Shown here in pieces: positions 10,342 through 55,227 of a stretch of DNA of 64,000 nucleotides. The stretch's first letter is position 1. Each line of letters starts with the position of its first letter. Made by a program: the position numbers and the translations under genes. The DNA comes from Mustelus asterias (taxonomy: Eukaryota). Where the stretch lies: the NCBI RefSeq assembly GCF_964213995.1, contig NC_135822.1, forward strand, positions 24,118,001-24,182,000, in the 5' to 3' direction. Below the pieces are notes generated by a model that was given only the letters and a program-made list of their open reading frames with translations, had not been told where the DNA came from and ran no database searches.

Positions 10342-10378
10342 CCATAAGCTTTCGGAGCACTGCTCCTTCGTCAGATGG
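10342..10378 (-). ncRNA. Minimal hammerhead ribozyme motif (inverted arm, sense to DNAJC16 pre-mRNA)
   Basis: Reverse complement reads ccat-CTGACGA-aggagcagtgctcc-GAAA-gCTT-atgg. Confidence 0.85.
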
Positions 10379-10382
10379 AGTC

Positions 10383-10419
10383 CCATCTGACGAAGGAGCA
10401 GTACTCCGAAAGCTTATGG
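10383..10419 (+). ncRNA. Minimal type I hammerhead ribozyme motif
   Basis: ccat-CTGACGA-a-ggag-cagta-ctcc-GAAA-g-CTT-atgg. Confidence 0.85.
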
Positions 10420-11561
10420 TATTTGCTACCAAATAAACCTGTTGGGCTTTAACCTGGTGTTGTGAGACTTCTTACTGGGTAGGAAATCTGCCATCCTTAC
10501 CTGGTCTTGCCGACATATGACTCCAGAGCCACAGCAATGTGGTTGACTCTCAACTGCCCTCGGGCAACTAGGGATGGGCAATAAATGCTTGCCAGCCAGC
10601 AACGCCCATATCCCATGAATCTCTTACGGATAAGATGTTAAACCAAGTCAAATCTATCTCTCAAGTAGACAAAGTTCCAATGGTACTATTTGAAGAAAAG
10701 CAGCGGAATTCTCTTGGTGTCCTAGTCAATATTTATTCCTCAAACAATACAGCTCAAACAGATGACCTAGTCAATAATTTGTTCTTGTTTATGGGGCCTT
10801 GTTGTGCTGTGTCTCCTACAAGAGGCTATAATACGTTGGTTGCATGGCACTTTGTGAAACCCTGAGGTTATGAAAGGTGTCATACAAGTACAAATTTGCC
10901 TTTCATTTTTCCTTTCAAACACAGTGCAAAGCTGACCCGAATAATCTTGGCATCAACATCAATTGTACTTTCAATTGGCTTCATATCAGAGTGTAAATGT
11001 TTAGTAAGAGATTTATGTATCTGTTGGAGAATGAATGATCACATTTATGTCACTGAGTTCTAATGACCTTTTAAAAGTTTGTCAGAATTTCTCAATTGTT
11101 TCAATCCATTTTGTAACATGCAGCCAGCTAACCGATATTTTAATTTATTTGGGTAGGGTTTTATGACTCTCAGATCATCCCTCCATTCCTAAAACGTTAT
11201 TTTGGTCTTTTTCCCATGACATCTTTTCCCAAATTATCACAATGGCTCATCACCGTGTATCCTTTTCAGTACTAAGTAGGAAGTGACTATGTGATTCAGC
11301 CTAAGAGTGTACTAGCTATAGGGTGACAAGACTGGAAAATTTTGGCACCGAATAACCTACTTGTGCCACAGATTTAAAATATTCCACATACACTTTGCTA
11401 AAGCATAACACCACACCAGACATTAACTCAAGTCAAGGCAAGGCACATGTATCATAATAATTACTGCCCTGAAATTTTTAACATTTCAATAAAAGTTTAT
11501 ATCAATGAACACAAGAAAATCAGTGAGGCCTCATCCAGGCTGTGATTATTTGACTACACAC

Positions 11562-11746
11562 CTGCTCCAAAAGGTTGCTTGGCAGAAGGTTTTCCACAAA
11601 ATGTCTCAGATTTTCTCGAACTACAGTGGTTTTAAAGAATGTTACTCTTCCATTGATGACTCCAACAATTGCCGGGTGCTGATACACCCCGAGGTGATTT
11701 AACAGACGACGCTCATACCCTGAATCTATGACTCCAATCCCAAGGC
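11562..11746 (-). CDS. DNAJC16: DNAJC16 exon 5
   Basis: cag|GC...CAG|gtgtgt; GLGIGVIDSGYERRLLNHLGVYQHPAIVGVINGRVTFFKTTVVRENLRHFVENLLPSNLLEQ. Confidence 0.95.
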
Positions 11747-12149
11747 CTGAAAGGAAATTCAACAACAGATCACTTATTCCCTGTCACTCCATGAATACTG
11801 ACACGCTTTACTAGTTTGCATTTTATTTCCCCACAACCCGATCCCTCTAATTTTCTCTTTTCCCTCCGGGAAGCAGTGATTATGGGGCTGGGGGACCATT
11901 CCACAGGCTCTGGCTGTCCTATCACAGTTACCCAAGTAGCCATTCTTCACTTGATCCTGCACAGAGAGAACGAAAAAAGATGGTGCTGGAGCGAGGCGAC
12001 TTCTTGCGAGCTGTCACCACCCAGCATACCCTCTAATTTCATCATTTACTTCCATTCTGTGCTTTTAAAGCTGAACTCACTCCATTCTGCACCCTCTCCT
12101 TTCCTTTTCCCCTACGTAGTCCATGAACGGTATGTTTTGCTTGTACAAG

Positions 12150-12467
12150 CGGCAGCACAGTGGCACAGTGGTTAGCACTGCTACCTCACAGCGCCAGGGA
12201 CCGGAGTTCGACTCCCGGCTTGGGTCACCGTCTGTGTGGAGTTTGCGCATTCTCCCCGTGTCTGTGTGGGTTTCCTCCGGGGTGCTCCGGTTTCCTCTCT
12301 CAGTCCAAAGATGTGTGGGTTAGGTGGATTGGCCATGCAAAATTGCCCCTTAGTGTCAGGGGGATTAGCAGGGTAAATGGGTTATGGGGATAGGGCCTGG
12401 GTGGGATTGTAGTCGGTGCAGACTCGATGGGCTGAATGGCCTCCTTCTGCACTGTTGGATTCTACGA
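12150..12467 (+). mobile_element. HE1-type tRNA-derived V-SINE with CR1-like tail (other copies at about 7525, 16338, 24585, 26445, 35425-, 44610-, 54053, 56689, 57243-, 59773-)
   Basis: tggcacagtggttagcactgc...gttcga head (pol III A/B-box like), V-domain ttctccccgtgtctgcgtgggtttcctccgggtgctccgg, tail gatgggccgaatggcctccttctgcactg. Confidence 0.85.
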
Positions 12468-12589
12468 TATAAGAAACAATACTTTTCACTATATCTCAGT
12501 ACGTGACAATAATAAATCAAATCATTTATATGAAGGCATCAGAGTCGAGTTGGTTCTGCCTCTTCCATTGGCCGTACACAACCGATTCA

Positions 12590-13058
12590 TAAGACCGCAA
12601 GATGTAGGAGCAGAATTAGGCCACTCGGCCCATCAAGTCTGCTCCGCCATTCAATCATGGCTGATATTTTTCTCATCCCCATTCTCCTGCCTTTTCCCCA
12701 TAATCCTTGATCCCCTTATTAATCAAGAACCTATCTATCTCTATCTTAAAGACACTCAATGACCTGGCCTCCACAGCCTTCTGCGGCAAGAGTTCCACAG
12801 ATTCACCACTCACTGGCTGAAGAAATTCCTCCTCATCTCTGTTTTAAAGGATCATCCCTTTAGCCTGAGGTTGTGCCCTCTGGTTCTAGTTTTTCCAACT
12901 AGTGGAAACATCCTCTCCACGTCCACTCTATCCAGGCCTCACAGTATCCTGTAAGTTTCAATAAGATCCCCCCCTCATCCTTCTAAACTCCAACGAGTAC
13001 AGACCCAGAGTCCTCAACTGTTCCTCATACGACAAGCTCTTCATTCCAGGGATCATTC
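12590..13058 (-). mobile_element. CR1/HER1-like LINE 3' end
   Basis: Near-identical to 19195-19640. Confidence 0.85.
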
Positions 13059-13272
13059 AACTCCTTTATAGCTCAGAGCCACAGAGGCCAATTGCAGCAT
13101 CCAACTGACATCAGTTAACACAACAGAGACCAAAGGTTGCACCCAAGCCCTTTCTGGTTTATACATCAGAACACGGCACCACCTGTTGAGCCATCAAAAG
13201 TGCTCCTTGACTTTGAAGAGTTTCCCCTATCAAACAGAAACTTTGTCATCGATTATTTTGAGGCTGACATAC

Positions 13273-13606
13273 CCAGAGGTTCCAACTCCTGCACCAGCTC
13301 CTTCCAGATTGGCTCAATGTGAACGCAGCTGAAACACCAATCGGAAGTCACTTTGATGAGATACAGTTTCTTGTAACTGTCTGGCACAACCTCAGTCATG
13401 TACTGCGAGAAATGCAGTAAGTACTTATCGTCGAATGAGTCACGGGCAGAATTAAACTGGAACTGAAAAAAGGAGTCATCGAAGAAGAAGCTGTCGTATT
13501 TGTGGAAACCCCGGAAGTGGTGCTGCGCATGTTGGAGATTCCCTGGCTGTCCATCAGCATCTCCGTACTTATCAAAATTCGACCTCCTCTCCTCATTTGA
13601 AAGAAT
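13273..13606 (-). CDS. DNAJC16: DNAJC16 exon 4 (end of J domain, thioredoxin CxxC)
   Basis: tag|ATT...G|gtatgt; ILSNEERRSNFDKYGD...LIKVTSDWCFSCVHIEPIWKELVQELEPL. Confidence 0.96.
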
Positions 13607-16600
13607 CTAAAGCAAGAAAAGAGTTCATCAGTTGGCACAGTGAGCAAGGCTTTCACTCTAACTTCATGGGATGTGTAATAATGACACCCATAATACAGAC
13701 TGGGAGCTATTTGTGCCCATCATCTTTCCATTGTGAACTAGCGTCAGGGACACGGGTTCGATTCCCAGCTTGGGTCACCATCTGTGCGGCGTCTGCACGT
13801 TCTCCCCGTGTCTGCGTGGGTTTCCTCCGGGTGCTCTGGTTTCCTCTCACAATCCAAAAGGCGTGCTGGTTAGGTGCATTGGCCATGCTAAATTCTACCT
13901 CAGTGTACCCGATCAGGTGCCGGACTAGGGGATTTTCAGAGTAACTTCATTGTGGTGTTAATGTAAGCCTACTTGTGGCATTAATAAATAAACTAAGCTA
14001 AACAAAAAGAGTATTTTTTTTGTACAGCTGAATTCATAAGTTCTAGGAAGTTGCATAAAGATTGCAATGTAAAAGAAAATACAAAAATAGAAAGAGATAT
14101 ATTGATGATTTGGCTAAGGTGCACAGCGTATAATTTCAAACTTTATAGATGACCAGAAACTCAGAAATGTAGTAAACAATGAAGAGGATGGCAACAGACT
14201 TCAGGAGGGCAGAGTTGAAACGGGCAGTCACTTGGCAGATGAAGTTTAATGTACAAAAGTGTGAAGGGATACATTTTGTTAGGGAGAATGAAAAAAGGCA
14301 ATACAATTATATAGGAGGTGCAGGAAGAGAGGAGGGGAGTGTACACAAATCCTTGAAGGTGTAGGACAAATTGAGAAGATGTTAAAAAGGCCATTTGGAA
14401 TTCATGCCTCTATTGATAGCAGCCTGAAGTACAAAACCAAGCTAATTATGTTAAACTGTTATAAAACACTAGCTCGGCTCAGTTGGGTGGCACACTTCAC
14501 GAAGGATATCAAGTTCTTAGAGGATTCAACCATTGCTTGATCAAAATCCTGGAACAACTTCTACCTAGGACAAGGGCAGCAGACACATGGGGAAAAGTTA
14601 ACTTAATTGGGTAAGAGTTGTTTCTTTAATTTGTATGCGTTTTAATAAAACTAAGTTTGAACCACAGTCCTTTGTTTGTCTCAAAGTAAGAGCACCTGGG
14701 TAAACACATTTATGAGTAATAAACTGGTTGAAGTGTCTGGCTAGAATATTTCACAGGCAGCAAAATATATCAGCGTTCCTTCATTGTCGCTGGGTTAAAA
14801 TCCTGAAACTCCCTCACTAGTAACACCAAGAGTGTATCTACATCACATAGACTGCAGTGATAATTAGGGCAATTAAGAATGGGCAATAAACACTGGCCTT
14901 GGCACTCCATGAATTAATAAAAAATAATTCAGGAAATTTGATGGAGATGTTCAATGTGATCAACATTAACAAAGGGAAAGTGTTTCCAGTGATAGAAGCA
15001 TCAATAATCTGGAGATACTGATCTAAAGGTAAAAGTACCAGATGTGAGATGAGGATTTGTTTTGTATATACAAAGTGAATTATGATCTGGAGGCAGATTC
15101 AACAAAAAATTACAAAAAGAAATTTGATAAATACTTGGAGGGAAAAATGAAAGGCCAAAGGAAAACAAAATGGGAAAGTAGGACGAGTTAGATAACTCTA
15201 AACTAAAAGATCTGGCAAAGGTACAATGGTCTCCTGAGGTACAATTGCTTCTAATGGAAGGATCTTCCCAGTTCCACAGGGGTCAGGCTTGAAAGTGAGA
15301 CCAGGAAGAACTTCACAGAAGTTGATGTTGAGTCAGCAGACCAATACGTTCCTGCCTTCAGATGATCTTCACAGATGAAGGGTTATCACCTGGAAAGTTG
15401 GATACCAAACTGTATAATTAACTCCCTATTTGTGGGCTGATTGTGCATACCACTACAGGTGCCCCCAGTGCCAACAAGACTGACAGGGGCCTGAAGACTT
15501 GGCTGGTGACTCGTCTACAGGGCTGCACAAGGCCTCCGACAATCACTCATTGCTGACAATCCTCAGGGAGGGCTTCCCCTCCACAGGGGTGGTTTCACAA
15601 CGTGGCCAGAGTCTTTAAAACAAAAGTTATAACACCTTCAGATGCATCAAGATTGACTCATGTGCCCTCATGTTCCCAGGCCCACAGTGGTAGCACCCAG
15701 CTCCAGCAGCTGGGCTGCCCTCCTTCCAAGGCTGAAGGTCCTCTGATTGTGCCTACAGCCTCAGGGGATGCTGATCTAAAGGTAAAAGCACCAGATATCA
15801 TGGTGGATCCATGGGGCCTCTCAATTGTTGCCTCCAGGAAGATCTTCCAGGCAAGCATCCTGACAGTTAGAGCAGGGCCTGGACCTGGAAATTGTCCTAA
15901 TGCACACGTATGCCCTAAGAGCAGATGATTCCTTCCTATGATAGCACATGAATCTGGTAGATGATCTGAAGATAAAGGGATAACCAGAGAAGACGTTTTC
16001 CTAAATGACTGTTTGTAGCAGACATGCCTCCAAGTTTCATGCCAGAGGCGCAAGCACAAATCAAGGCTTACAATCCAGCGCACTAGTGAGGGAAGATAGC
16101 AATTTAGGAGGTGCCATCTTTCGCACAAGATGTTATACCAAGGCTATTCCTGTTCTCTCCGGTGGACATAAAAGATCCCATGACGCTCTCTCAAAGAGCA
16201 GGGGAGTTGTCCCCAATGTCCTGGCCAATATTTATCCCTCAAATCAACATCACAAAAACAGATTGCTGTTTATGTGAGTGTGTTGTGTTCGCAAATTGCC
16301 TGCCATATTACTTACAATACAACAGTAACCATGCTATGGGGGCACAGTGGTTTGCACTGCTGCCTCATTCTCCTTGTATCTGCGTGGGGTTCCACGGAGT
16401 GCTTCGGTTTCCTCCCACAGTCCAAAGATGTGCAGGTTAGGTGGATTAGCCACGGTAAATTGCCCCTTAGTGTCCCAAGATGTGTAGGTTGGGGGATTAG
16501 TGGGGCAAGTGCATGGGGTAAGGGGTGGGCCTGGGTAAGATACTTTGTCGAAGAGTCGGTGCAGACCCAATGGGCCAAATGGCCTCGTTCTGCACTGTAG

Positions 16601-17232
16601 GGATTCTATTCTATTCTTCCAAAAGGTATTTTATTGGCTGTAAAGCACTTTGGGATGTCGAGTAGTCCTAAAAGGAACTATATAAATATGAGTCTTCATT
16701 TTTACATTCACAGAATGTGAAGTACCACGCCTGAAGTAGGTATTATCCTGATTTATTTGATCTCCACATGGACATGAACTAATATCAAATAGTATAGAAT
16801 GTAGGGAAACTCAAGGGTTGTCAATAGTGCTGAGTCTATTTAGTGGCTTTATGGACTATAAGAAAAAATACCTATTGTAAATGGGTCTACAGTAGGAGCA
16901 GTATGAACTGTAACTTCTCCCCCATAGAATAACAATGAAAATATAATGTATAACCCATCTGACCAGACAATATTTGTGATGAGACACTTGATCTTTTGTT
17001 AATAACTCAAAGAACTGCTTTTTATGGAAAGATATTCTTGATTCTACCTACATAAAAGGAACTATTACTTAATTCATTAAGGAAATATCTATGCAACAAT
17101 AGAGTAAAATAATTCAGGCTTCAGAAAATCCTGACAAAACTCAAACAAATAGCAATGGACTTCAGTCATTACACATTGTAGGAAATCTATGAGTAAATCT
17201 TTATATTATTTCTACACAAAGATTTGAATTAC

Positions 17233-23110: not shown

Positions 23111-23115
23111 AAGGT

Positions 23116-24921: not shown

Positions 24922-25125
24922 AAATGTTTTAAAATCTCAGCAGGTCTGACAGCATCTGTGGAGAGAGAATGGAACTAACGTTTTGAGTCTGGATGACCCT
25001 TTGTCAGAGCATCTAGACTCGAAATGTTGGTTCTATTCTCTCTCCACAGATGCTGTCAGTCATGTTGAGATTTTCCGGCATTTTCTGTTTTTGTTTCAGA
25101 TTCCAGCATCTGCAGTATTTTGCTT
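24922..25125. mobile_element. Second family of fold-back repeat with degenerate hammerhead core (likely PLE-derived)
   Basis: cagcatctgtggagagagaa...ttctctctccacagatgctg inverted arms; core reads ctgacaaagggtcatccagactcaaaacgtt on - strand; related single arm at 28612-28720. Confidence 0.65.
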
Positions 25126-25456: not shown

Positions 25457-25648
25457 GTAAGAAGTCTCACAACACCAGGTTAAAGTCCAACAGATTTATT
25501 TGGTACCAAATAACATAAGCTTTCGGAGCTCAGCACTGAGCTCCGAAAGCTTATGGTATTTGGTACCAAATAAATCTGTTGGACTTTAACCTGGTGTTGT
25601 GAGACTTCTTACTATGTTTACCCCAGTCCAACGCCGGCATCTCCACAT
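25457..25648. mobile_element. Fold-back Penelope-like terminus, hammerhead core truncated at the centre
   Basis: Palindrome centred on gagctcag-ca-ctgagctc (~25535); TSD cagtgcaatact at 25445-25456 and 25649-25660. Confidence 0.88.
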
Positions 25649-26064
25649 CAGTGCAATACTCACAGACTGGACTCACACACGAAGAAAGGCCACATGGACA
25701 AAGTGCCAGAGAACAACCAGCTGCCATTGATCTGTGCACCAGCCTACAACCGAGAAGGGAGGAAATTCTGCAGGACAATAGAGAGGAGAAAAATCCTGGA
25801 TCACTCAACTGACTAAGAGAGAGAGAGAGGAAAAAGAGAGGTTAAACTACATCACTTGGAAATATTTATTTTGATGATTACAGAATCCTTATCCAGCTAA
25901 TGCTTCCCCCTTTTTACCCTGTCCTATTTAATGTTCTGTCTGCTGCTATTTTCTGGCCTGTCATTTGCCCCATTGTGCTCACATTGAGCAGCTCTGACTG
26001 ACTGAGAGAGAAGCCGCCTTCCCCCCTCCTCCGGGCTCTCCTTGTCCCCCCGCTCAATACTCAC

Positions 26065-26574: not shown

Positions 26575-27079
26575 TGTGGGGGAGCACTTCAGCGGTCAAG
26601 GCCTCTGATCTTCGGGTAAGCGTTCTCCAAGGCCGCCTTCACGACACACGACGGCGCAGAGTCGCTGAGCAGAGACTGATAGCCAAGTTCCGCACACATG
26701 AGGAAGGCCTCAACCGGGATCTTGGGTTCATGTCACACTATCGGTAACCCACAGCTTGCCTGGACCTGCAGAATCTCACTGGCTGTCCTGTCTGGAGACA
26801 ATACACATCTCTTTAACCTGTGCCTAATGGTCTCTCCACTCACATTGTCTGTATTAAGACTTGATTAACTGTAAAGATTCGCATTCTAATCAGTATTCTG
26901 TAACTTGAGTTTGTGTCTCTGTACGCCTTGTTTATGAGCAGATATCCACTCCATCTGACGAAGGAGCAGCGCTCCGAAAGCTAATGACATTTGCTACCAA
27001 ATAAACCTGTTGGACTTTAACCTGGTGTTGTTAAAACTTTTACTGTGTTTACCCCAGTCCAACGCCGGCATCTCCACGT
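26575..27079 (+). mobile_element. 5'-truncated Penelope-like element (GIY-YIG endonuclease C-terminus + pLTR) inserted into a SINE
   Basis: ASDLRVSVLQGRLHDTRRRRVAEQRLIAKFRTHEEGLNRDLGFMSHY resembles the PLE endonuclease end (E...GLN); TSD cgtgggtttcctcc at 26561-26574 and 27080-27093. Confidence 0.9.
26952..26986 (+). ncRNA. Minimal hammerhead ribozyme motif
   Basis: cat-CTGACGA-a-ggag-cagcg-ctcc-GAAA-g-CTA-atg. Confidence 0.85.
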
Positions 27080-27778
27080 CGTGGGTTTCCTCCCACAATC
27101 CAAAGATGTGCAGGTTAGGTTGATTGGCCCTTAATGTTGAGGGGATTAGGGGGGTAAATATGTGGGGTTATGGGGATGGGACCTGGGTGGGATTGTTGTC
27201 AGTGCCCAGGCTCAATGGGCCGAATGGCCTCATTCTGCACTGTAGATTCTATAATTTTATGATTCTAATACTGCAATGAAGTTACTGTGAAAATCCCCTT
27301 GTCGCCACACTCCAACGCCTGTTCGGGTACCCTGAGAGAGAATTTTACCATGGCCAATGCACCCAACCAACACTTTCGGACTGTGGGAGGAAACTGGAGC
27401 ACCCGGAGGAAACCCACGCAGACACAGGGAGAACGTGCTGACTCTGCACAGACAGTGACCCAAGTTGGGAATTGAACCCGGGTCCCTGGCACTGTGAGGC
27501 AGCAGTGCTAACCACTGTGCCGCCCCTTTATGTCACTTAGCTCTGAAAAAATGGATTTACAAGCAATTTTTTATGTTACTTAATTGCTGTCAGTGTTGAA
27601 ATAGCTTGCCAGATTATTTTTGGGAGGGTTTGATTCATCTATTCGGATCTAGAGATCTCACATCAACAGACTGCCATTCTAGTTCCTTTTTTCTTAAATG
27701 ATTCTTGGGCCTTTGACTACATCACTTTTTTTTATTCATTCATGGGACATGGCATCACTGGCTGGCTAGCATTTATTG

Positions 27779-28121
27779 TAAGAGGTTTAACAACACCAGG
27801 TTAAAGTCCAACAGGTTTATTTGGTAGCAAAAGCCACACAAGCTTTCGGAGCCTTAAGCCGCTTCTTCAGGTGAGTGGGAATTCTGTTCACAAACAGGGC
27901 ATATAAAGACACAAACTCAATTTACATGAATAATGGTTGGAATGCGAATACTTACAGCTAATCAAGTCTTTAAGATACAAACAATGTGAGTGGAGAGAGC
28001 ATCAAGACAGGCTAAAGAGCTGTGTATTGTCTCCAGACAGGACAGCCAGTGAGACTCTGCAGGTCCAGGCAAGCTGTGGGGATTACAAATAGTGTAACAT
28101 TAACCCAATATCCCGGTTGAG
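27779..28121 (-). mobile_element. Penelope-like fragment (single arm, no terminal extension) with hammerhead at 27837-27873
   Basis: Reverse complement begins cctcaaccgggatattggg (LNRDIG); TSD gcatttattg at 27769-27778 and 28122-28131. Confidence 0.85.
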
Positions 28122-31100
28122 GCATTTATTGCCCATCCCTAGTTGCTGTGGCTCTGGAGTGACATGTAGGCCAGACCAGGTAAGATGTGCAGGTTAGGTT
28201 GATTGGCCAGGTTAAAAATTGCCCCTTAGAATCCTAAAATGCGTAGGTTAGAGGGATTAGCAGGTAAATATGTGGGGGTAGGGCCTGGGTGGGATTGTGA
28301 TCGGTGCAGACTCGATGGGCCGAATGGCCTCCTTCTGCACTGTAGGGTTCCTATGATTTCTATGACGGCAGATTTCCTTCCCTAAAGGACATTAATAAAC
28401 CAGATTTTTTTTCCCAAACAATCAATAATGGTTTCATGGTCATCAGCAGATTCTTAATTCCAGATTTTTTTATTGAATTCAAATTCCACTGTCTGCTGTG
28501 GCAGGATTTGAAGCCGGGACCCCAGAACATTAGCTGAGTTTCTGGATTAATAGTCTAGCAATCATACCATTAGGCCATCACCTAGTGGTATTGGAAACTA
28601 ATTCCACATACTGAGCTCTGACAAAGGGTCATCCAGACTTGAAACGTTTGGCTCTATTCTCCCTCCACAGATGCTGCTGATATTTTCCAGCATTTTCTGT
28701 TTCTGTTTCAGATTCCAGCATGGAATGCGCTGCCAAGTGGTGGGGGCCTGGAATGCGCTGCCAAGTAGGGTGGTGGAGGCAGGCACGCTGACATCGTTTA
28801 AGACTTACCTGGATAGTCACATGAGCAGCCTGGGAATGGAGGGATACAAACGATTGGTCTAGTTGGACCAAGGAGCGGCACAGGCTTGGAGGGCCGAAGG
28901 GCCTGTTTCCTGTGCTGTACTGTTCTTTGTTCTTTATCTGCAGTATTTTGCCTTTATCCACATACTGATCACTTTCTTGTCATGGTGTAAACTGGGCAAT
29001 AGAGTGTTTTGCAGACAAATTTACATTTCTTCCTATTTTCATTTTCTGATGAAGAATTTCCCGAAATCTGCCCTAAAAATGGCTTCTCACGTTTGAACCT
29101 TATCTTCTTGTTCGACTCCTGCAATTTAATTTCTTTCAGGTTATGATACTAAATACATAGAATATCCAGCACAGAAACAGGATAAAGATATTTTCTGGTG
29201 TTTCTGCTGCCCAAGCGCCCCGCCACATTCCACTTAATCTAACCTTATCAGCATAACCCTTATATCCTTCTTTGTATGTTTATCCAACTTCTACTAATGC
29301 ATCCAGTGTTTGTCTCAATTACTTGGTGAGCTTTGCTCACCATTTCTGATCACTCTAGGTATATAAAATATTCCTTTTGAACTCCTTTATTGGTGATTGA
29401 TCTTATTTTTATGGCCTCTTTATTGTCTCCCCCAAAAGTGGAAACATCTTATCTATACATTAGCAATCCCTTTTATAACCTTAAAGATTATGTTACCCTT
29501 CAGCCTTCTCTTTTCAGAGCTCCAAGTCTAATCAATTTCTCTCTTGTCCTTGTAACCTCTCACTTCTGTTATCAGCCTTATAATCTTTGTTGCAGCTTCA
29601 ATACCTCTATGTCCTTTCTATATAAGATCAGAACTCTGCACAGTATTTTAGGTGTGGTCTAACCAAGATTCTATAAAGGTTTAACACGATGGGTGGAATT
29701 TAATGCCTTCGCTTTGGCAAGTTTGGTGTTTAATCAGGTGGGAGGGTGGCAGGTTGGGACCCTGCCTCCCTGCTTCCAACCTGATTCAGTCGGTGGCAGC
29801 AAGCCTGTGGATGGCTTTCCTACTCCATGCCAAGGTATTAACCCAGCAGAGGCAGGAAGCAACATGCAATGAACATGATAAACAAACCTGCACAGGGTTG
29901 CTTGCAAGTTTCCAGGGTGGTGTCCCTGGCTCAAAGACACTAATGCCTGATCGAGGGACCAGATGTTGGGAAGGGGAGGGTTGTATGTGAGGCCCTCTGA
30001 AAGTCATTACCTGGCCAGCTCTTACTGTGGGGCCCACTCTCCCCCACTATGACCCATCCCACAACGCCCCCATCACCAGCTAGGATCCAGTGACAATCCT
30101 AGACTTTGGGTTGATGTCCTACCAGCAGCAGCACCTCACCACTGGTATTGCCATTCAATCGGCCTCTGATTTAGCTGGCAATTCTTGGCAGGTGGGATAC
30201 CTGCTCCGCAAGTTCTTGAACGCAAGGAAGTCCACCGCTGTCCAACCAAGTGCCTGGCTGAGTGGCAGTAATTTAGTGGTGTTCCCTAAAAAAGAAGACA
30301 CTGAGCTCTTGCTGGCTCTCCAGCTGGTGACTAATATGCCTTCATTAAATACTGTCCAATGTTGCTGTTTCTTAATTCTATTTCTCTAGAAATAAACTGC
30401 TGTACTTTGTTTGCTTTTCTTACGTTGCCTTTTTCTGTGATCTGTGCATCCGTACCCTTTGCTCCACTACTGCGTAGATTCTTATTTTCTGAGAATTACT
30501 ATTTTGTCACCCAACAGCCTGCCCCACTACACTTCGCACTTCTCCCTTCTCTGGTTAACACTGGTAATCTTCTTCTACTCCCAATCCTAATCTCATCTTC
30601 TCCCCTCGGGCCCTACCCAAAAGCACCATTCCCAACTGTTGTCTCCTTCAATTTTGCTTCATTATGATCCATTTCCTCTCTACCCTCAAAAGGAATTCTA
30701 CCCAAGTCTTGTTTGTTAATGATTCCAGTCTCTGCGTGCACAAGGCAGGAATTTCTGTTCTTGCAAGTACAAGTCCCACAAAATGCTGGCTGTTGGCACA
30801 CAAGCCTCTGCAATTTGAAACTAGCATATTCTGTGCTCTAAGAATACATTGGCTTCATTGAAGCAGAGGCTAAGATAGCTCTGAGTTTTAGTTAGTGTTC
30901 TCTGACACACAGGTCATCTCTCTCAGTTGAAGAGTTAAGTGGCCTTCCAGAACTGGCAGATGAGATAATTACATCAGGAAAGGAGAGAGTCTTTTAAAGT
31001 TTTTTCCATAACTGTTCTCCACATGACTGCATCCAGAAATGCAGAGCCAGTTCCTACACTGTGCTCACACCCAACTCTGCTTCTCAACCCAATAGCCTCT

Positions 31101-37457: not shown

Positions 37458-37566
37458 ATGGACGAAGGAGCAGCACTCCGAATGCTAGTGATTTCAAGCA
37501 AATCTGTTGGACTATAACCTGGTGTCGTCTTGTCCACCCCAGTCCAACTCTGGCATCTCCACATCA
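37458..37566 (+). mobile_element. Degenerate Penelope-like terminus inside an old CR1 fragment
   Basis: ggacgaaggagcagcactccgaatgc...catctccacatca; TSD taagtagag at 37449-37457 and 37567-37575. Confidence 0.75.
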
Positions 37567-38881: not shown

Positions 38882-40285
38882 CTGTAAGAAAGAAAATGTT
38901 TCATCAAGTACAAACCCATTGGATTGAGTCCTTCAGATACTCTGAGATGGTGTGTAAAGTTGACCCCCTCACTATAGTCCCGCTCTGGTTGCATTGTTGG
39001 TTTATTCCACTTGTACGTTCCTCTGCCCTTTCTCTCTCCCTCTGGTCTCTCTTTCAAAACTGCATTGACCACGCTCTTCCAAGCAATTAGCTAAACAGAT
39101 GGTCTCATAGAGACAATTGGAACTGATAAAAAGCGGTTAAGGAGAAAGCACTTAAGAAAAAGAGATGGCTGGACAGTAGATGATCAAAGAGGCTGCAAGA
39201 GCAGCAAAGAATTTCAAAGGCAATTTTATAAGTATTTGGATTAGGAAGGATAAGTATTTAAAAAGGAATATAAAAACATGTAGGGAAAGGGCAGAACAAT
39301 GGAGCTAGAGTAGATAGATAGCAAATTTAAATAGTTAATCTCAGCACTACTGAAATGGCCGCTTCTGGTCTTAAAATTGCTATACTTCAATGGAAAAGGG
39401 AAGTTGATAATACTAATGCAAAAAATTCAAATTAATATTTTTCCCCGAGTGCACACAACGCAGAATAAATCAAAAACAGAAATTGGGTTGCTTTCCTTTA
39501 ATTGTTCAGTCTCTGTGCCCATATTTATTTCCCTCTCTGTGTGCAGGCAATGTGGAAGGTGCATCAATAAGAGTAATAAGGAAGAGATTGGATATGATAG
39601 GAGAGGGGAGAACAAATCCAATTACTTCACAAAGTAACTGTTACCGGAAATGCACCAAAGATTTTCTAAAGTCATACTATGTCATGGACCTTTGAAGAAA
39701 GAAGCAGTTAATGATATGATTCCAGTCAGTTGAGTTTCCCCAATACCCACTGACTTCCGTTTTACTCGGGCTCCTTGGTACCACATTCAAGTCAAATACA
39801 ACCTCGATATTAATGGCAGTCACTCTCGCCTCTAAAATTCAGCTTGGGTCCATGTCTGGGTCAAGGCTGTAATGAGGTCTGGAGATGTTTTGTCTAAGTG
39901 GAACAGAAACTAAAGCTGGGAAGGATCAACCACTGCAGTTCTATTGTTTTTGCACCCACGTGTTGGACTACGCCATCGCTGAACTTGGAATACTGATGAC
40001 CTCCCATCCTCCTGTTTGGCGGTGGACAACTTAGTACCTTTCATGACTGGTCATGCGAGGTTTGGCACCATCTCTTTGTTGTGAGATTGTACAGCTCTGT
40101 ATGTACAGTGCTGTTTTCACTGATTCGCAAGGATGAAGCTCTTTGCTGTTGCTTCACCAGGGGGTACATCAAGCTCACCTGCACAACATTTTGAATGGAG
40201 CTCGTCATTTGGCTTGCTTGTGATAGAGGAGTGAGGGATTTCCTAGGCATGAGATAACATATTGTGGCTGCATATAATTCTGCTG

Positions 40286-41102
40286 ATGTGGAGATGCCGG
40301 CGTTGGACTGGGGTAAACACAGTAAGAAGTTTAACAACACCAGGTTAAAGTCCAACAGGTTTATTTGGTAGCAAAAGCCACACAAGCTTTCGAGGCTCTG
40401 AGCCCCTTCTTCAGGTGAGTGGGAATTCTGTTCACAAACAGAACTTATAAGACACAGACTCAATTTACATGAATAATGGTTGGAATGCGAATACTTACAA
40501 CTAATCCAGTCTTTAAGAAACAAAACAATGGGAGTGGGGAGAGCATCAAGACAGGCTAAAAAGATGTGTATTGTCTCCAGACAAGACAGCCGGTGAAACT
40601 CTGCAGGTCCACGCAACTGTGGGAGTTACAAATAGTGTGACATAAATTCTGATTCTAGGATCGCATGATAAAGACTCAGGAGGAAAAAAGCAGAAATATT
40701 TATGTGAAATAGTGTGACATAAATATTTCTGCTTTTTTCCTCCTGAGTCTTTATCATGCGATCCTAGAATCAGAATTTATGTCACACTATTTGTAACTCC
40801 CACAGTTGCGTGGACCTGCAGAGTTTCACCGGCTGTCTTGTCTGGAGACAATACACATCTTTTTAGCCTGTCTTGATGCTCTCCCCACTCCCATTGTTTT
40901 GTTTCTTAAAGACTGGATTAGTTGTAAGTATTCGCATTCCAACCATTATTCATGTAAATTGAGTCTGTGTCTTATAAGTTCTGTTTGTGAACAGAATTCC
41001 CACTCACCTGAAGAAGGGGCTCAGAGCCTCGAAAGCTTGTGTGGCTTTTGCTACCAAATAAACCTGTTGGACTTTAACCTGGTGTTGTTAAACTTCTTAC
41101 TG
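40286..41102. mobile_element. Large fold-back Penelope-like insertion (387-bp inverted arms) in CASP9 intron 6
   Basis: Arms 40319-40705 and 40717-41103, 11-nt spacer; TSD tataattctgctg at 40273-40285 and 41103-41115; ORF track gives identical peptides on both strands. Confidence 0.92.
41005..41041 (+). ncRNA. Minimal hammerhead ribozyme motif (mirror copy at 40381-40417, - strand)
   Basis: cac-CTGAAGA-a-ggggc-tcaga-gcctc-GAAA-g-CTT-gtg. Confidence 0.85.
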
Positions 41103-42204
41103 TATAATTCTGCTGGCCAAGGTGTCTCACGATTGCTTAGTTTGAGCGACTGAATTTGTGTTTGATCAGACCAAGGTCAATCCCACTTAACACAGTATTA
41201 GCATCAAATGGAGGGTATCCTCAGTGTGAAGTCAGGACTGTGCCGGCATGAGGACGGTGTGGTCGTAACATTTATAAATGCTTTTGTGAACCAATGTATC
41301 ATGACAATTAAGAGTGGTGATGATGTGATCAAGCAGTCTCCTGTGATGGCTGTCTTACCATTAGTAACAATCCCATACTGGTGGCTACATCCTTTAGGAC
41401 TCGGGTAGCCTGGTCAGTGGTGGTTCTCCCGAGATATAATTGCTGATTGATTGCTCCCCAATGCAGTAAAATCTCTGGAGGACTGATTCATCAGCTGAGT
41501 GGGGGGGTAGGAGATAGTAATCAGCAGGAGGTTTTCTTGCCTATGTTTGACCTGTCGCATGAGGCATCATGGAGTTTGGACTCACTGCTGAGGACCCTCA
41601 GGGCCACTCCTGACTGTGTACCACACTTGGCCCATTTCTGATCGACCTGTCCAGCTAATAGGACAGGACGCACTCAGGGATGCTAATAAAAGAATCTGAG
41701 ACTACACTTTAAAACAAAAAGTACTCCATTGGCTGTATGGTGCTTTGAGATGTCTGATGGTCATGAAAAGTGCTAAATAAAAGTCCTTCTTTCTTTTCTT
41801 TATGTCAGGTTAACTAGTTTGTAGGATAGCCCCTCAATTTAGGCACCAGATCCGTGGTGTTGTAAGGAGGACTTTGAGGGGTCGCCTGGGATGAGCGTGC
41901 TTTTTTTAAGTCCTGATTTGATTCTTCTGTTGCAGACGAGTTTTGATATTCCTTGCAGCAGTTTGATATAACTGAATGTCTTGCTGGGTAACTTAAGAGG
42001 GCAGTTAACAATGAAGCGACTGTCCTGGGCCCAGAGTCACATATAGGCCAGATGGGATAAAAGCGGCGGGTCTGCTTCAGTAAAATGAATGGTTGGGTTT
42101 TTATGACAATCTGAAAGCTTCATACTCACATTTACTGATACCTTTATCCACAGGTTTTATTTCAAAACTAACTTTAAATTCTCTAATTGCCATCCAAAGT
42201 TTAA

Positions 42205-47989: not shown

Positions 47990-48525
47990 CTCAGAAAGGA
48001 AATTCGGCATGTCAGCTACGACTCTCACCAACTTTTACAGATGCACCATAGAAAGCATTCTTTCTGGTTGTATCACAGCTTGGTATGGCTCCTGCTCTGC
48101 CCAAGACCGCAAGAAACTACAAAAGATCGTAAAGGCAGCCCAATCCATCACGCAAACCAGCCTCCCATCTATTGACTCTGTCTACATTTCCCACTTCCTC
48201 GACAAAGGAGCCAGTATAATTAAGGACTCCACGCACCCCGGACATTCTCTCTTCCATCTTCTTCCGTTGGGAAAAAGATACAAAAGTCTGAGGTCACATA
48301 CCAACCGACTCAAGAACAGCTTCTTCCCTGCTGCCATCAGACTTTTGAATGGACCTACCTCGCACTAAATTGATCTTTCGCTACACCCTAGCTATGACTG
48401 TAACACTACATTCTGCTCTCTCTCATTTCCTTCTCTATGAACGGTATGCTTTGTCTGTATAACGCGCAAGGAACAATACTTTTCACTGTATGCTAATACA
48501 TGTGACAATAATAAATCAAATCAAA
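47990..48525 (+). mobile_element. Rex1/Babar-type LINE 3' fragment
   Basis: LTNFYRCTIESILSGCITAWYGSCSAQDRKKLQ...TNRLKNSFFPAAIRLLN; tail aataaatcaaatcaaa. Confidence 0.85.
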
Positions 48526-48706
48526 GTCCTTCTGAACATCAACATTTATAAATTTCACGTCTATTGGTTTGTACATACAGGAAATCTCCAAAAACTGTAT
48601 CCGCAGAAATTGAATTTGGGACTGAATTATCCTCAACGCCAGCTAACATCCTTCACAAAACTCAACAAGTAAATAGTTTGTATAGAATACTGATATAACC
48701 ACTCAC

Positions 48707-48762
48707 CATGTCATCCTGTAGTCTTTCCATAATTGATTTACTTGGAGGTCTGAGATCTGTAC
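48707..48762 (-). CDS. CASP9: Caspase-9 exon 3 (short linker exon)
   Basis: tttcag|GT ACA GAT...ATG|gtgagt; 56 nt, phase 1->0, bridges exons 2 and 4 in frame (TDLRPPSKSIMERLQDDM). Confidence 0.75.
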
Positions 48763-48799
48763 CTGAAACACAAGGACACAAAATTGTGATGCACCTTTC

Positions 48800-51440
48800 T
48801 CCATAGAACAATTCTCCAAGTCATTTACATTTCAAAACTCCAAACTGCCCAGCTTTGTGGCCTTCCATTCGCCACAATGTTTCTACCACTGTCATCCCAC
48901 TTGACACCCTCTCCTCTCCACATTTTGATTTCTTTATCTTTGGTAAAATCTTTACTCTCTCTCGTTCTGACCACTGCTCCTGGTTTAGGCCCTGTCTTTT
49001 ATCTCTCATGTCCAAGGGATGTAGACTGAAGCAAAACTGATGCACAACTGGTTTGGGCATCACCAAATCTGACTAGACCATGCAAGTGCAATTAGATTAC
49101 ATTCACCTCGACTATGCTGCCTACTTCTGGAGAGCAGAAGAACACCTCTGGTTGCTTTTCTTAACTATCAATCACCCCTTGAATCTTTTCCACTCCCCCT
49201 CCCGCCTCCCCAATCTCCTCCAGCCTCACCTCCTGCAAGATTGTGAAGCTCATAGACTTTGTCACCAAGGCAAACCTCCCTTATCTTCACCCATCAAATC
49301 AAACCTCTCTTTCAGGCTTCTCCTCCCCTGACCTTGATGCTGCTTCATTCTCCAGTTTGTGCCCTACATCCCCATCCAAGCTCACCTTGCTCATGAAACC
49401 TACCTTCTGCTGTCTTGACCACAATTCTACCAAACTACCGACCATTTAACTACCCTTCCTCTCCATGGGCATCATTCTCATCTCTTTCAAAACTGGCGCA
49501 AAGAAAAACAACCCTCAATCCTTAAGACCTCACATACTACCATCCAGGCTCCAAACTCCATTTTGGCTCCAAATACCTTGAATTTCTTGCTTCCAAAATT
49601 TGTGCCCGCCTTTACTACAAATATGGAACTGGTCATTCAGGTTACCACCTTGAAACAGTCTTAATCTGAGTCACAAAACATATCCTCGGTGATCGTGGTA
49701 CATTTTACTTCTCAAACACCTGCAGGACTTGACATGGTTCTCACACTAGCCTCCCCTAACCCTTCTCCTCTTTTGTGCAGCTCAGTTGGACTTCCCACTT
49801 CTGGGCTCCATTCTCAATTGTGCAAATGGAGCCAGTGCATCTCTGGTCATAGTTTTTCTTTCCAACTGCCCCAACACCATCATCTCTGAATCTATCCTTG
49901 ACCCACTCCTCTTCCTGATCTATTTGTTGTTCCTCAGGGCAACTTCTAATTTCCAGTACTTATAGGCTCAATTTACTCAGCCTCTCACTGTAGGATAACC
50001 CCCTCATTCCAGGGATCGATCAAGTGAGCCTTCACTACGCTGTCTCAAGAAGGCAGGTATATCCTTCCTTAAGATACGGAGATCAAAACTCTGCACAGTA
50101 CTCCAGGTGTAGTCTCACCAAAACACCCTTTAGACCCCTTAAGACTTCCCTTAAGACCCCCTTAAGACTTCCTTCTTCAGCTTCTATATGTATGCTAATG
50201 ATGCCCAGTACTACCTCACAAACACATCTCTCAACCTTTCCACTGCCTCGGTGGCGTCAGATGCTTTATTGACATCAAGCATTGGCTGCACTGTGTTTTC
50301 CTCATTAAATATTGGGGAAATATTTGCTCCCTGTGCTTGCCGACCTACATAGGTTCCTGATTTTAAAATTCTCATTTTGTTTTCATGGCCTTGTCCCTCC
50401 CTATCTTTGTAATTGTGTTCCAGCCCTGTGTATGCCTACATTTGTCTTAATTCTGGCCTCTTGACCATCCCAATTTTTATTCACACCACCATTCGTGGCG
50501 GTACCTTCAGTTGCCTAGGCCCTAAGCTCTGAAACTGGCTCCCTACTTTCATTTCTACCTGTAAGACCTTCCTTAAATCAACCTATTTGGCCAAGCCTTT
50601 CATCACTTGACCCACTACACGGCTATATCACATTTTGTTTTATAATGCTCCTGCAAAGCATCTTGGGATGTTTCAGTACATTAAAAGGTGCTATACGAAT
50701 GTAAGTTGATGTCATTGAAAAACAAAGCCATTGCTTTTGATCACAGCCAGAAACTCTGGACCTTTGCCTATGATTCCATTCCCTTATTCAGCTGATATCC
50801 CAGGCTAATCCATACCGTTCTCAACCTCAGCATCTTATTTGATCCCGAGTTGAGTTTCTGATACATCCTCCCTGTCCACCTCTGTAACATTGCACATCTC
50901 TGCCCCTATTCTGCCCATCTGCTGCAGAAACTTACATCCATAGTCTAGCCTTGACTGTTCCAATGCTGTCCTGGACAGCCTTCCATACTCTAAACTTCAG
51001 CCCATCAAATTCTCTGCTCATCAAATTGAATCCCACACCAGGTCCTGCTGACTTGCCCTCATTGTTTTTGCTATCATACTTTGGCTCCCGGTCCCTCATA
51101 TTCTAAAATCTAACCATCCTCTTGTTTAAATTCCTTCTTTGCCTCGACTTTCCTACCTCGCAGAACTCCTTTATAAGTTTCATCCCTCGAATTCCCTCTT
51201 TTTCCATTTCCAACCGCTTGAGCATTCTTCTCACTACCTTACTATTGGCAATCCTCTGGTCCTGAGATTTCCATCCTTAACCCTTCTGCCTTGCCATCTC
51301 CCCAAGGCTTCCTTCAAACTCACTTCTTAACCAAATATCTCCTCATCCGGCTCCACCTCCATCTTTGCCTAATTACACCTGTATAAATACCCAGATGTTT
51401 TTCTAGGTTAAAGATTTTATATAAATGCAAGTTGCTGTTA
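48800..51440 (+). mobile_element. Highly degraded L2-like LINE relic with nested fragments
   Basis: Pyrimidine-rich, L2-like ORF2 remnants; no open frame. Confidence 0.5.
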
Positions 51441-51625
51441 CATTCTCTACACACTGTTTTTTTCAGATCCTGCTTGTACTGATGCTGGATTCCGAAATCA
51501 AAATGTGTTTACATTTTACCCCAATGTTAGTTTTTATTAAGTGTAAGCTTAAAGTGTTTTCAAAGATGAGAAGTAGAAAACTCGTTTATGCAGGCTGTAA
51601 TAAGTGGCATCCTTAGAATGTGAAA

Positions 51626-51908
51626 GGGCAGTACAGTGGTTAGCACTGCTGCCTCACAGCGCCAGGGACCCGGGTTCGATTCCCGGCTTGGGTCACTGTC
51701 TGTGTGGAGTTTGCACGTTCTCCCCGTGTCTGCGTGGGTTTCCTCCACATGCTCCGGTTTTCTCCCACATTCTGAAAGACGTGCTGGTTAGGTGCATTGA
51801 CCCAAACAGGCGCCGGAGTGTGGCGACTAGGGGAATTTCACAGTAACTTCATTGCAATGTTAATGTAAGCCTTACTTGAGACCAAAAAATAAACTTAAAA
51901 AAAAAATA
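51626..51908 (+). mobile_element. V-SINE with alternative tail B (other copies at about 4040-, 13742, 27267-, 37843-, 42205-, 57153, 61283-)
   Basis: Same head/V-domain, but ends gtggcgactaggggaatttcacagtaacttcattgcaatgttaatgtaagccttacttg + A-rich. Confidence 0.85.
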
Positions 51909-52444
51909 AATGCAAGTCTTTCTTTATGGCAGATCTCACCCATGCTCTTTTATAGTATATCAAACCAGTTTGAAAGTGCGCACACTTCACAGCCGCAATG
52001 AATTATTTTATAGCAAAAAAACAATGTTCATGTTTAATCAACATTCCATTGAACGGAGTTGAGAACAAAAAAAATGCAGTCCCTATCTTTCATTCCCAAT
52101 GTTTCTTTGATATATCAGTTTCATCGTCCTTGTCTGTCTTCCTAAGTTTCTGAACCACTTGCTAAATCAGATTCCCTTCACGTTTGCTGTACCATTTTGT
52201 GCACCATTCAAACCTTTTGCCCCATTAGCCTCCGATTTAATTCTTTAGACGTCTTCCCAATGGGAGGAAAGGGAGGGCGAAGCAACTGTTCAACACCTGC
52301 CGAAACACAATGCTGGGACTTTTATAGTCTCAAGCTCAGTAGCTACAAACTGGTCCCAGATTAGCCACTAAATAGTAACCAGAACAGGGTTAAGGTAAAT
52401 CCATATTGTCAAGCAATCAGTTTCTTCAAACACAACCTGCGTAC

Positions 52445-52685
52445 ATTGGACAGGGTGAGAAGTCCTGGTGTCCTTCTGTACAGGTTTATATCCTTTCCGG
52501 GGTTCAACTGGTTTAACAGGGGTGAAGGGCCTGTCATGGACAGCGAGCCCATCTCGCAGCAAATCAACAAGCTCAACTTGTCCAGTTTCCTCCAGACTTT
52601 CCAAAAAAGCAGGAAATGCTCCTGTCCCACGGGTCTGCAGGTCAGTTACCAACTGACGGGCCTGGTCCCGGCGTGTTCCCGAATT
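52445..52685 (-). CDS. CASP9: Caspase-9 exon 2 (CARD C-terminal half)
   Basis: tag|NSGTRRDQARQLVTDLQTRGTGAFPAFLESLEETGQVELVDLL...; donor T|gtacgc chosen for phase (alternative phase-0 donor at 52437). Confidence 0.88.
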
Positions 52686-53092
52686 CTACAGTCAAAGAAA
52701 ATTCTGTAAACTACATTTTGACGATCATTTAAATACTGTAATTTCAAACTTAAGCAGTATTCATACATTGTCACAATGTTAGCTGGCATTTGGTTTATTT
52801 CAATGGCTAATCTTCCAGAATTCCATCAAGACAAACAGTAACCAAAGGAGGATTTCAAACAGAAGTAGGAAACAGTAGAAACAGCACATTCACAAACCAG
52901 TTTACAACAACTTATATAAACTTGAAGATACACTTCTATTCCTAAACTGTGTCTGGCTATGTCTCAAACATGATGTTTTTAAATTCCCTTGATCTTCCTG
53001 TATTTTAATAATTTTACTCCATTTGCAGAATTAAAAAGCCAATGCACCAAGCGGACAGAGCAAGCCCCCAATCCAGCATCCTGCCTACTCAG

Positions 53093-53892
53093 GAGTTTAA
53101 CCCTGATAAATGTGAGGTGATTCATTTTGGTAGGACAAATTTAAATGTGGATTACAGGGTCAAAGGTAGGGTTCTGAAGACTGTGGAGGAACAGAGAGAT
53201 CTTGGGGTCCATATCCACAGATCTCTAAAGGTTGCCAGTCAAGTGGATAGAGCTGTGAAGAAGGCCTATAGTGTGTTAGCTTTTATTAACAGGGGGTTGG
53301 AGTTTAAGAGCCGTGGGGTTATGCTGCAACTGTACAGGACCTTGGTGAGACCACATTTGGAATATTGTGTGCAGTTCTGGTCACCTCACTATAAGAAGGA
53401 TGTGGAAGCGCTGGAAAGAGTGCAGAGGAGATTTACCAGGATGCTGCCTGGTTTGGAGGGTAGGTCATATGAGGAAAGGTTGAGGGAGCTAGGGCTGTTC
53501 TCTCTGGAGCGGAGGAGGCGGAGGGGAGACTTAATAGAGGTGTATAAAATGATGAAGGGGATAGATAGAGTGAACGTTCAAAGACTATTTCCTCGGGTGG
53601 ATGGAGCTATTACAAGGGGGCAAAACTATAGGGTTCGTGGTGGGAGATACAGGACGGATATCAGAGGTAGGTTCTTTACGCAGAGAGTGGTTGGGGTGTG
53701 GAATGGACTGCCTGCAGTGATAGTGGAGTCAGACACTTTAGAAACATTTAAGCGGTTATTGGATAGGCACATGGAGCACACCAGGATGATAGGGAGTGGG
53801 ATAGCTTGATCTTGGTTTCAGATAAAGCTCGGCACAACATCGTGGGCCGAAGGGCCTGTTCTGTGCTGTACTGTTCTATGTTCTATGTTCTA
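53093..53892 (+). mobile_element. Young CR1/HER1-like LINE 3' fragment
   Basis: Open frame EFNPDKCEVIHFG...LVRPHLEYCVQFWSP...; (ttctatg)n tail. Confidence 0.93.
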
Positions 53893-54052
53893 CTCCAAAA
53901 ACCAACTTGAATTCAAATCGAATTCAATTCATGGGACACACTACATCCAAGCTGACCACAACAAGCACCACACCTGATCCCATGCTCGATTTCACACTTG
54001 ATCTCAGCCAAAAGGCCTTTTCTGTTGTTTTCTTGGATGTGTCCTGTCTCAA

Positions 54053-54358
54053 GGGTGGCATGATGGCACAGTGGCTAGCACTGCTGCCTCACAGCGCCAG
54101 GGATCCATGTTCAATTCTGGCCTCATGTCACAATCTGTGTGGAGTTTGCACATTCTCCCCGTGTCTGCGTGGGTTTCCTCCAGTTTCCTCCCACACTCCA
54201 AAGATGTGCGGGTTAGGTGGATTGGTAAATTGCCCCTTAGTGTCAGGGGGATTAGCAGGGTAAATATGTGGGGTTATGGGACAGGGCCTGGGTGGGATTG
54301 TTGTCGGCGCAGACGCGATATGCCAAAAGGCCTCCTTCTGCACTGTAGGGATTCTATG
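54053..54358 (+). mobile_element. HE1-type V-SINE
   Basis: Head, V-domain and CR1-like tail. Confidence 0.85.
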
Positions 54359-55030
54359 GGTTCAATAGTGTCCTTAATCACAAACATTCATTTTTAACTG
54401 TGTAGAGCTGATTTGCTCTATTCTTGAGAGTTACTCATTACTGTCGCAGCTGAACTTAACTGATGGCACAGAGCAGGGTTAAAAACCTGTAACTTGACGG
54501 TTTCTTTGGCTCAGTCTCACAACATGCAATGTATTTTCCCATTAAATCAGGTGAACACTCAAGTTCTCCAGGTGTATAAATAAGATTTGAAATCTATTTA
54601 AATATGTAGAGCTAGCTTAATTATCAACCCTTGGATTTTTGCATCATCAAAGATGGCCCATACAAAAAAAAACACAAGAGGATTATACAATTACGGCAAT
54701 ATTCCAGTCAGGGATTCAATTCTAAGAGATGTGGAAAGTAGCTTGAGAATGAAGGGCAGGACTATGGGCACAAGGAAACAGATTTGTTTAGGGTTTGCAT
54801 ACAAAATAATAAATATAGACGACAGAATAGAAAAGGAACAAGACAAGCAGACAAAGTTATTAAAACATTTTATTCGACCTGACTTGATTTCCTTAAGTTA
54901 TTTTGTTGTACAGTACTGGTTGCAGTGCTTAATATTTGAAACACCACAGAAGCAATATATATAATCAGTTAATACACTAGTAGATTTAATTATTGCAAGA
55001 TCCAAATAAGTATGTTTCAACAATTATTTG

Positions 55031-55227
55031 TGATGTGGAGTTGCCGGCGTTGGATTGGTGTAGGCACAGTAAGTAGTCTCACAACACCAGGTTAAAGTCC
55101 AACAGGTTCATTTGGTAGCACGAGCTTTCGGAGCGCTGCTCCTTCATCTCTCACTCGCCTGATGAAGGAGCAGTGCTCCGAAAGCTCGCGCTACCAAATA
55201 AACCTGGTGTCGTGCGACTACTTACTG
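55031..55227. mobile_element. Fold-back Penelope-like terminus in CASP9 intron 1
   Basis: Same tgatgtggag...cttactg architecture; TSD caacaattatttg at 55018-55030 and 55228-55240. Confidence 0.85.
55156..55190 (+). ncRNA. Minimal hammerhead ribozyme motif
   Basis: cgc-CTGATGA-a-ggag-cagtg-ctcc-GAAA-g-CTC-gcg. Confidence 0.85.

Follow-up and report, generated by a model that had tools for sequence, protein, structure and literature searches.

Hammerhead motifs in and between DNAJC16 and CASP9

The window analyzed here, a 64,000-nucleotide (nt) stretch of the genome of the shark Mustelus asterias (contig NC_135822.1, positions 24,118,001–24,182,000, assembly GCF_964213995.1), contains two host genes on its minus strand, recognized by the 100% match of two exons to M. 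asterias proteins labelled caspase-9 and DNAJC16. The coding exons of CASP9 span positions 56279–34906 and those of DNAJC16 run from 25695 down to 1023, a tandem, same-strand arrangement that contrasts with the head-to-head arrangement of the human genes. Within and between the two genes sit seven short motifs with the form of hammerhead ribozymes (HHRs), carried by insertions of a Penelope-like element (PLE) family, and these motifs are the subject of this report.

An earlier note on this DNA had listed seven motifs, and all seven are present where it placed them, with C3 at positions 10374(-), 10387(+), 26955(+), 27870(-), 40414(-), 41008(+) and 55159(+). In every one the core CUGANGA ... 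GAAA ... UH appears in type I order, one extra base stands between A9 and position 10.1 together with a G10.1-C11.1 pair (G-C in all six distinct sequence rows), and helix III is reduced to the palindrome AGCU. Stem I measures 3–4 bp and stem II 5–6 bp, the latter being formed in six of the seven. Two motifs are sense to their host genes, A- (10342–10378, minus strand; 4-bp stem I, N7=C, 5-bp stem II, triplet CUU, H17 at 10346) to DNAJC16 and C- (40381–40417, minus strand; 3-bp stem I, N7=A, 6-bp stem II, CUU, H17 at 40384) to CASP9. Each is accompanied by a plus-strand motif on the inverted arm of the same insertion, namely A+ (10383–10419), whose stem II is 4 bp long through loss of pair 10.5, and C+ (41005–41041), which is identical to C-. 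The others are B1 (26952–26986, plus strand; 3-bp stem I, N7=C, CUA, H17 at 26983), D (55156–55190, plus strand and antisense to CASP9; stem I CGC/GCG, N7=U, CUC, H17 at 55187), and B2 (27837–27873, minus strand), in which the core is intact and a C·C mismatch at pair 10.2 breaks stem II, leaving no hammerhead fold. The three bases seen at N7 (C, A and U), the set of cleavage triplets (CUU, CUA, CUC) and AGCU in place of stem III are all as first described; the stems are indeed paired in most motifs, but stem I of B1 has 3 bp and not the 4-bp ccat/atgg, and the stem II defects of A+ and B2 depart from the original account.

Chance is an insufficient source of such motifs. A full descriptor, which asks for the core, UH, a palindromic A15.1-U16.1 segment and minimum lengths of 3 bp for stem I and 4 bp for stem II, finds six sites where 0.01–0.02 would be expected by chance (300 dinucleotide shuffles of the window average 0.01, maximum 1); when stem II is left free it finds seven and the shuffles give 0.11 (maximum 2). 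The bare core alone is uninformative (11 matches versus 6.5 in shuffles), its matches at 29046+, 45930+, 62096- and 28446- failing the full descriptor and lying within chance, and a loose match at 1294+ was not recovered by the descriptor scan. The model search that the earlier note had suggested came out negative, as the Rfam 15 hammerhead models give no match at E<=5 for the whole window or at E<=10 for two motifs, a result that would be expected because the motif has no stem III. The window motifs lack both an Rfam model match and a stable stem III, the two marks of the canonical type I hammerhead. Rfam microRNA-precursor matches at 10316–10444 and 40621–40801, below gathering scores, are fold-back palindromes, and pattern scans of metagenome and viral contigs returned no locus with the motif.

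Minimal hammerheads (min-HHRs) of PLEs are a kind already known, described since 2014. Lünse, Weinberg and Breaker are said to have described, in RNA Biol 14:1499, PLE hammerhead variants with a very short palindromic stem III, for which dimer cleavage was proposed. Dimer-cleaving PLE variants with such a stem III, as cited in a review (PMC6765202), share that feature with the window motifs, which have no same-strand tandem partner in the window. The closest likeness is to the min-HHRs in the pseudo-long terminal repeats (pLTRs) of metazoan PLEs (Cervera and De la Peña 2014, PMC4209133), with which the window motifs have in common the type I core, the extra base between A9 and 10.1, the G10.1-C11.1 pair, the palindromic 15.2-16.2 segment, the missing stem III and the short stem I, as well as numerous variant families within a genome, copies that are truncated and dispersed, and opposite-strand pairs ~100–700 bp apart. 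In schistosomes the stems are longer, 7–8 bp for stem II and 4–5 bp for stem I, compared with 5–6 and 3–4 bp in the shark (PMC4209133). In B1, B2 and C, C3 is preceded at a distance of 13 nt by a T-rich stretch followed by CAG (26942, 27883, 40427), which resembles a 3' splice site; helix I is where an intron of D. virilis ends (PMC4209133).

Insertions of a Penelope-like element family

Seven short insertions of one repeat family are found in the window, each bounded by a target duplication of 9–14 bp, and a search of the window with the 3' part of the family revealed no further or shorter copies. The earlier count of seven motifs is correct, but they represent only five independent insertions, since A and C each contribute two motifs as inverted arms (10342/10383 and 40381/41005). 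Insertion A (10247–10478, minus strand), in a DNAJC16 intron, is a head-to-head fold-back with the tail on its minus arm and a 12-bp duplication (10235–10246 / 10477–10488). Insertion C (40284–41103, minus strand), in a CASP9 intron and with a 13-bp duplication, is likewise a fold-back with the tail on its minus arm, its arms being 100% complementary over 387 nt. The fold-back D (55031–55228, minus strand; 13-bp duplication), in CASP9 intron 1, has a minus (tail) arm that starts within the core and a plus arm with a 15-nt deletion. Two further motif-bearing insertions consist of a single stretch of the element: B1 (26575–27082, plus strand; 14-bp duplication), which comprises the 3' end of an endonuclease gene, the pLTR and the tail and lies within a repeat resembling a short interspersed nuclear element (SINE), and B2 (27778–28126, minus strand; 10-bp duplication), a single arm without the tail. 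Family sequence without an intact core accounts for the minus arm of D (55031–55148) and for two further insertions: E (25457–25650, plus strand; 12-bp duplication), a fold-back in a DNAJC16 intron centred on stem II, in which neither arm has CUGANGA, and F (37458–37566, plus strand; 9-bp duplication), a decayed copy in a CASP9 intron that starts within the core and has its GAAA changed.

Head-to-head fold-backs make up four of the seven insertions, and in all four one arm reaches the outer end of the element while the other stops ~36 nt earlier. The resulting one-sided tail of ~36 nt lies, in insertion C, at 40284–40319 (minus strand), between an internal 3' end point at 40319/40320 and an outer one at 40284. 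Contigs of public sequencing runs show the same two 3' ends, with 755 loose ends at 40284 in run X18, and 70, 15 and 17 at 40284, 40319 and 40320 in run X2 (which, like X1, is RNA only by guess). The abundance of the family is very high, as 63,155 contigs of X18 match one arm at >=85%, a figure that is not a copy number. In 14 X18 contigs the outer and internal 3' ends, lying on opposite strands, abut one another (40284 / 40318, tail-to-tail), an arrangement absent from the window.

Assignment of the family to the PLEs, as the earlier note had it, was borne out by the presence of an endonuclease end, target duplications, an inverted 5' copy and the one-sided tail. In B1 the pLTR follows the C-terminal end of a PLE GIY-YIG endonuclease (EN; 26583–26747, plus strand, frameshifted upstream), where 40 of 53 residues (26583–26744) are identical to the C-terminus of P0008, a shark protein with reverse transcriptase (RT) and GIY-YIG domains (residues 590–642 of 643), and identity to all 14 homologues found is 71–89%. 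P0008 matches the Pfam family RVT_1 and its homologue P0003 matches GIY-YIG (PF01541), and the 45-residue window fragment itself matches no Pfam family. A tblastn search for a full RT-EN reading frame with P0008 matches the window only at 26583–26741, and the copies are therefore truncated relics. The linker of P0008 reads C-x4-C-x2-C, in a region outside what the window covers; CX2-5CxxC between RT and EN is the pattern given for Neptune-type ENs (PMC8557442), and because its homologue carries this linker, the family appears to belong to the Neptune clade. Three other shark proteins, P0005, P0010 and P0012 (a pyrin-domain protein, XRCC5 and a PPP1R12A-like protein), contain the same endonuclease end, likely through read-through of gene models into repeats, although it may alternatively have been exonized.

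With the EN+ PLEs of the Neptune clade (Craig et al. 2021, PMC8557442; Arkhipova et al. 2013, PMC3846280) the window copies share the C-terminal GIY-YIG domain, the inverted 5'-truncated copy, a tail of 30–40 bp at one end, target duplications and palindromes at the inverted junction, but the window holds only the last ~55 endonuclease codons, its clade being judged from homologues. The Poseidon element of Anolis (Frangieh et al. 2024, PMC11167929) is similar in having two 3' end points that define a tail, which there lies between two reverse-transcription start sites, a ribozyme upstream and copies crossing the cleavage site. It differs in its clade and in an open reading frame that starts at stem II, whereas for the window family the cysteine linker of the homologues is of the Neptune type and the core holds no conserved ATG. 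Type I hammerheads are also found in non-LTR retrozymes, animal repeats related to PLE pLTRs and reported in one chondrichthyan (Cervera and de la Peña 2020, PMC7229834; bioRxiv 10.64898/2026.07.22.740005). Retrozymes form head-to-tail tandem repeats, with canonical HHRs in PMC7229834, whereas the window copies are dispersed, inverted and minimal; no tandem array covers any motif, and a retrozyme origin was rejected.

Several features of individual insertions were also recorded. Upstream of the last endonuclease codons of insertion C lie ~60 nt unlike the endonuclease gene (40647–40716), of lower depth and seen in X18 only; the 11-nt spacer between its arms repeats a piece of the element, visible as an 18-bp inverted repeat at 40707–40724 / 40776–40793. 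Insertion C possibly represents a non-autonomous subfamily. Both of its arms have the same base at 40538 and at the mirrored plus-arm position, in disagreement with 99% of X18 family depth, and the arms of E and of D likewise share variants of their own, which points to one template or to arm-to-arm conversion. Insertion E lies ~12 nt into the intron that follows the first coding exon, a short one, of DNAJC16 protein P0058 (25663–25650), and its target duplication overlaps the donor site region. Elsewhere in the window, a tandem array in CASP9 intron 1 (55663–56004; 4.7 copies of a 73-nt unit) has no hammerhead core, and an imperfect inverted repeat at 24951–25054, with arms of ~37 bp and a weak match to a microRNA model, is unrelated to the PLE family.

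Stem changes, folding and the state of the copies

The motifs are very probably type I min-HHRs in the pLTR of a high-copy, Neptune-type PLE family, their fold being selected in the source elements and the copies being dead relics. On the six distinct rows, 46 of 48 cells pair (95.8%), against 29–58% in slid controls, and three of the eight pairs undergo a double change, two in stem I and one in stem II. Variants at >=5% in public contigs are listed at six of 31 ribozyme positions (three in stem II, two in loop II, and N7). In stem II, two of the variants swap G-U and G-C, while pairing of the third would require its linkage to one of those. None falls on the 13 core positions (one-sided p 0.025 within the motif). 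Selection on the fold in at least three subfamilies, as first proposed, thus stands as plausible and in agreement with the literature, but its support is thin and the window cannot prove it. Such selection would most likely apply to the source elements and not to the window copies.

It is improbable that the stem changes reflect neutral drift among repeat subfamilies, through CpG decay in a few lineages, and only look compensatory. This would account for the small number of double changes, which 12 of 500 shuffles reach in a control that ignores relatedness, and for the two unpaired cells. It accords poorly with the excess of pairing over the slid controls, with the further versions having a paired stem II that loose-end consensus sequences and variant letters of public contigs provide, and with the covariation reported for the same architecture across metazoan PLEs (PMC4209133).

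Several points nonetheless weigh against a selected, functional hammerhead fold. The covariation rests on three pairs and about four lineages and is suggestive, not proven; zero core variants would also be expected from a background of 25 variant places in 463 nt; and N7 C->U and some stem changes occur at CpG sites and could be mutational. As for folding, the probability of stem I is only 0–0.22 in all five motifs that were folded together with 40 nt of their native 3' flank, and the minimum-energy dimers obtained by cofolding, which does not model the hammerhead core, pair via a swapped stem II and not through AGCU, worth only -2.5 kcal/mol. Duplexes with swapped stem II can be formed by any hairpin and were rejected as dimer evidence, and because the cofolds pair in this way the dimer step finds no support from folding. 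The motif itself would call for such a step, since AGCU would leave a 2-nt loop in the monomer, so that stem III cannot close and a second copy would be required for cleavage after CUH. Folding of the monomers gives weak z-scores (-1.8 to +1.3), and motifs on the same strand are 12.5–17.5 kb apart.

These features bear directly on whether one or more copies have been adopted by the host to cut DNAJC16 or CASP9 pre-mRNA, an idea prompted by the intact motifs A- and C-, which lie sense in introns of the two genes, and one that we consider highly improbable. Both motifs are enclosed in near-perfect palindromes, of which the antisense arm is transcribed first, and their stems I and II have a predicted probability of 0.0 inside them; no same-strand partner is found within 12.5 kb; and the insertions are young repeats with intact target duplications. 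Since the host-sense motifs lie inside fold-back palindromes, the window copies are most likely inert, as judged from predicted folding. A small hairpin directly 3' of H17 in A- (10345–10330) and C- (40383–40366) competes with the 3' strand of stem I, and according to this prediction a hairpin so placed, 3' of the predicted cleavage site, could hold the ribozyme off until protein binds.

Insertion junctions and cleavage

How the ribozyme would act in the source elements can be outlined by analogy with other PLEs. Stems I and II would form within one copy, a second copy would pair with it through AGCU for cleavage after CUH, and cleavage of the dimer would probably be helped by the element's protein. 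The window copies may be regarded as 5'-truncated by-products of target-primed reverse transcription, apparently started at either of two 3' end points ~36 nt apart on RNA that had not been cut at CUH. A simple fold-back of the first cDNA as the source of the inverted arms fails for D, whose inverted arm extends further 5' than the tail arm. The sequence AATAAA (40360–40365, minus strand, in C) lies 17–19 nt past the predicted cleavage site, as measured in arms A-, B1 and C-.

All 11 arms cross the predicted cleavage site and none of the seven insertions starts there. This pattern is what would be seen if the fold were maintained for a structural role, for protein binding or for making reverse transcriptase pause, and rarely or never cleaved in the element's cycle, which we regard as possible, if clearly the less probable course. 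In the anole PLE, mutation of the ribozyme left in vitro insertion unaffected, the template was mainly RNA that had not been cleaved, and the site was neither the start nor the end of any RNA-seq read (PMC11167929). Activity in vitro is low or absent in most tests, min-HHRs showing no monomer cleavage and low dimer cleavage (PMC4209133) and one of nine Xenopus retrozyme dimers being cleaved (bioRxiv 10.64898/2026.07.22.740005), and the function of HHRs in EN+ PLEs has been called unclear (PMC8557442). Against a purely structural role stand the retention of all catalytic nucleotides and NUH in all seven motifs, with N7 and H17 varying as catalysis allows, the cleavage of the anole ribozyme, which needs protein (PMC11167929), and a pair of junctions, described below, in which a run of A is joined to the first base after the predicted site. 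A hammerhead kept under selection in the source elements is the preferred reading.

The 5' junctions of the insertions cluster near the ribozyme. Four of the seven have theirs in an interval of about -12 to +16 nt around C3 (10380, 25535, 37460, 55150), at -7 and -4 for A, at +2 and about -10 to -12 for D, at about +2 for F, and with E centred on stem II, the starts of the other insertions lying at about -251, -291/-302 and -378. Under exponential length models the chance of four in seven in such a window is <=0.003, for a window chosen after seeing the data and an assumed null. A steep fall in public-contig depth at 40378 was considered as truncation at the ribozyme and rejected, as the loose ends there are hammerhead sequence of other subfamilies. 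Among the joints listed for X18 (12 of 28), two contigs (depth ~22 each) have 40383, the first base after H17 (40384), joined to 40345 or 40347, that is 13–15 nt past AATAAA, with an eight-T run (plus strand) in between. The listing does not specify the kind of joint, both may go back to a single event, one of them contains an additional base, and the position of the boundary could be off by one. Should the joints be on the same strand, the predicted 3' cleavage product would have been joined to a polyadenylated end of the element, and the contigs might preserve a fossil of in vivo cleavage. A third joint in X18 also lands at 40347.

From these observations a more general, and rather doubtful, suggestion arises, namely that junctions of dead copies record the action of the ribozyme in vivo, the fold being a hot spot for RT stop and fold-back and a minority of templates being cut at CUH. 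RT stop and fold-back at the hammerhead would explain the many palindromic shark relics of ~110–135 bp that start in the core, and poly(A)-tailed RNA ends joined exactly to N1.1 would be cleavage fossils, formed by subsequent template jumping or circularization. The approach has a precedent, since in R2 elements the types of 5' junction follow the site at which the ribozyme cleaves (PMC3774820). Literature searches, in which subscription journals were thinly covered, found nothing on shark PLE hammerheads or cleavage-site junctions, so that novelty is not established.

As a class the shark motifs add little, and their value lies in the material they provide. An abundant family with many subfamilies, in which target duplications mark both ends of a copy, permits a proper test of covariation. 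Junctions at the cleavage site can be counted in it as well, and such a count speaks to the question whether the ribozymes act in vivo and to what end they cut. If dead copies do record ribozyme action, the shark genome alone could answer whether the minimal hammerheads of PLEs cleave in cells.

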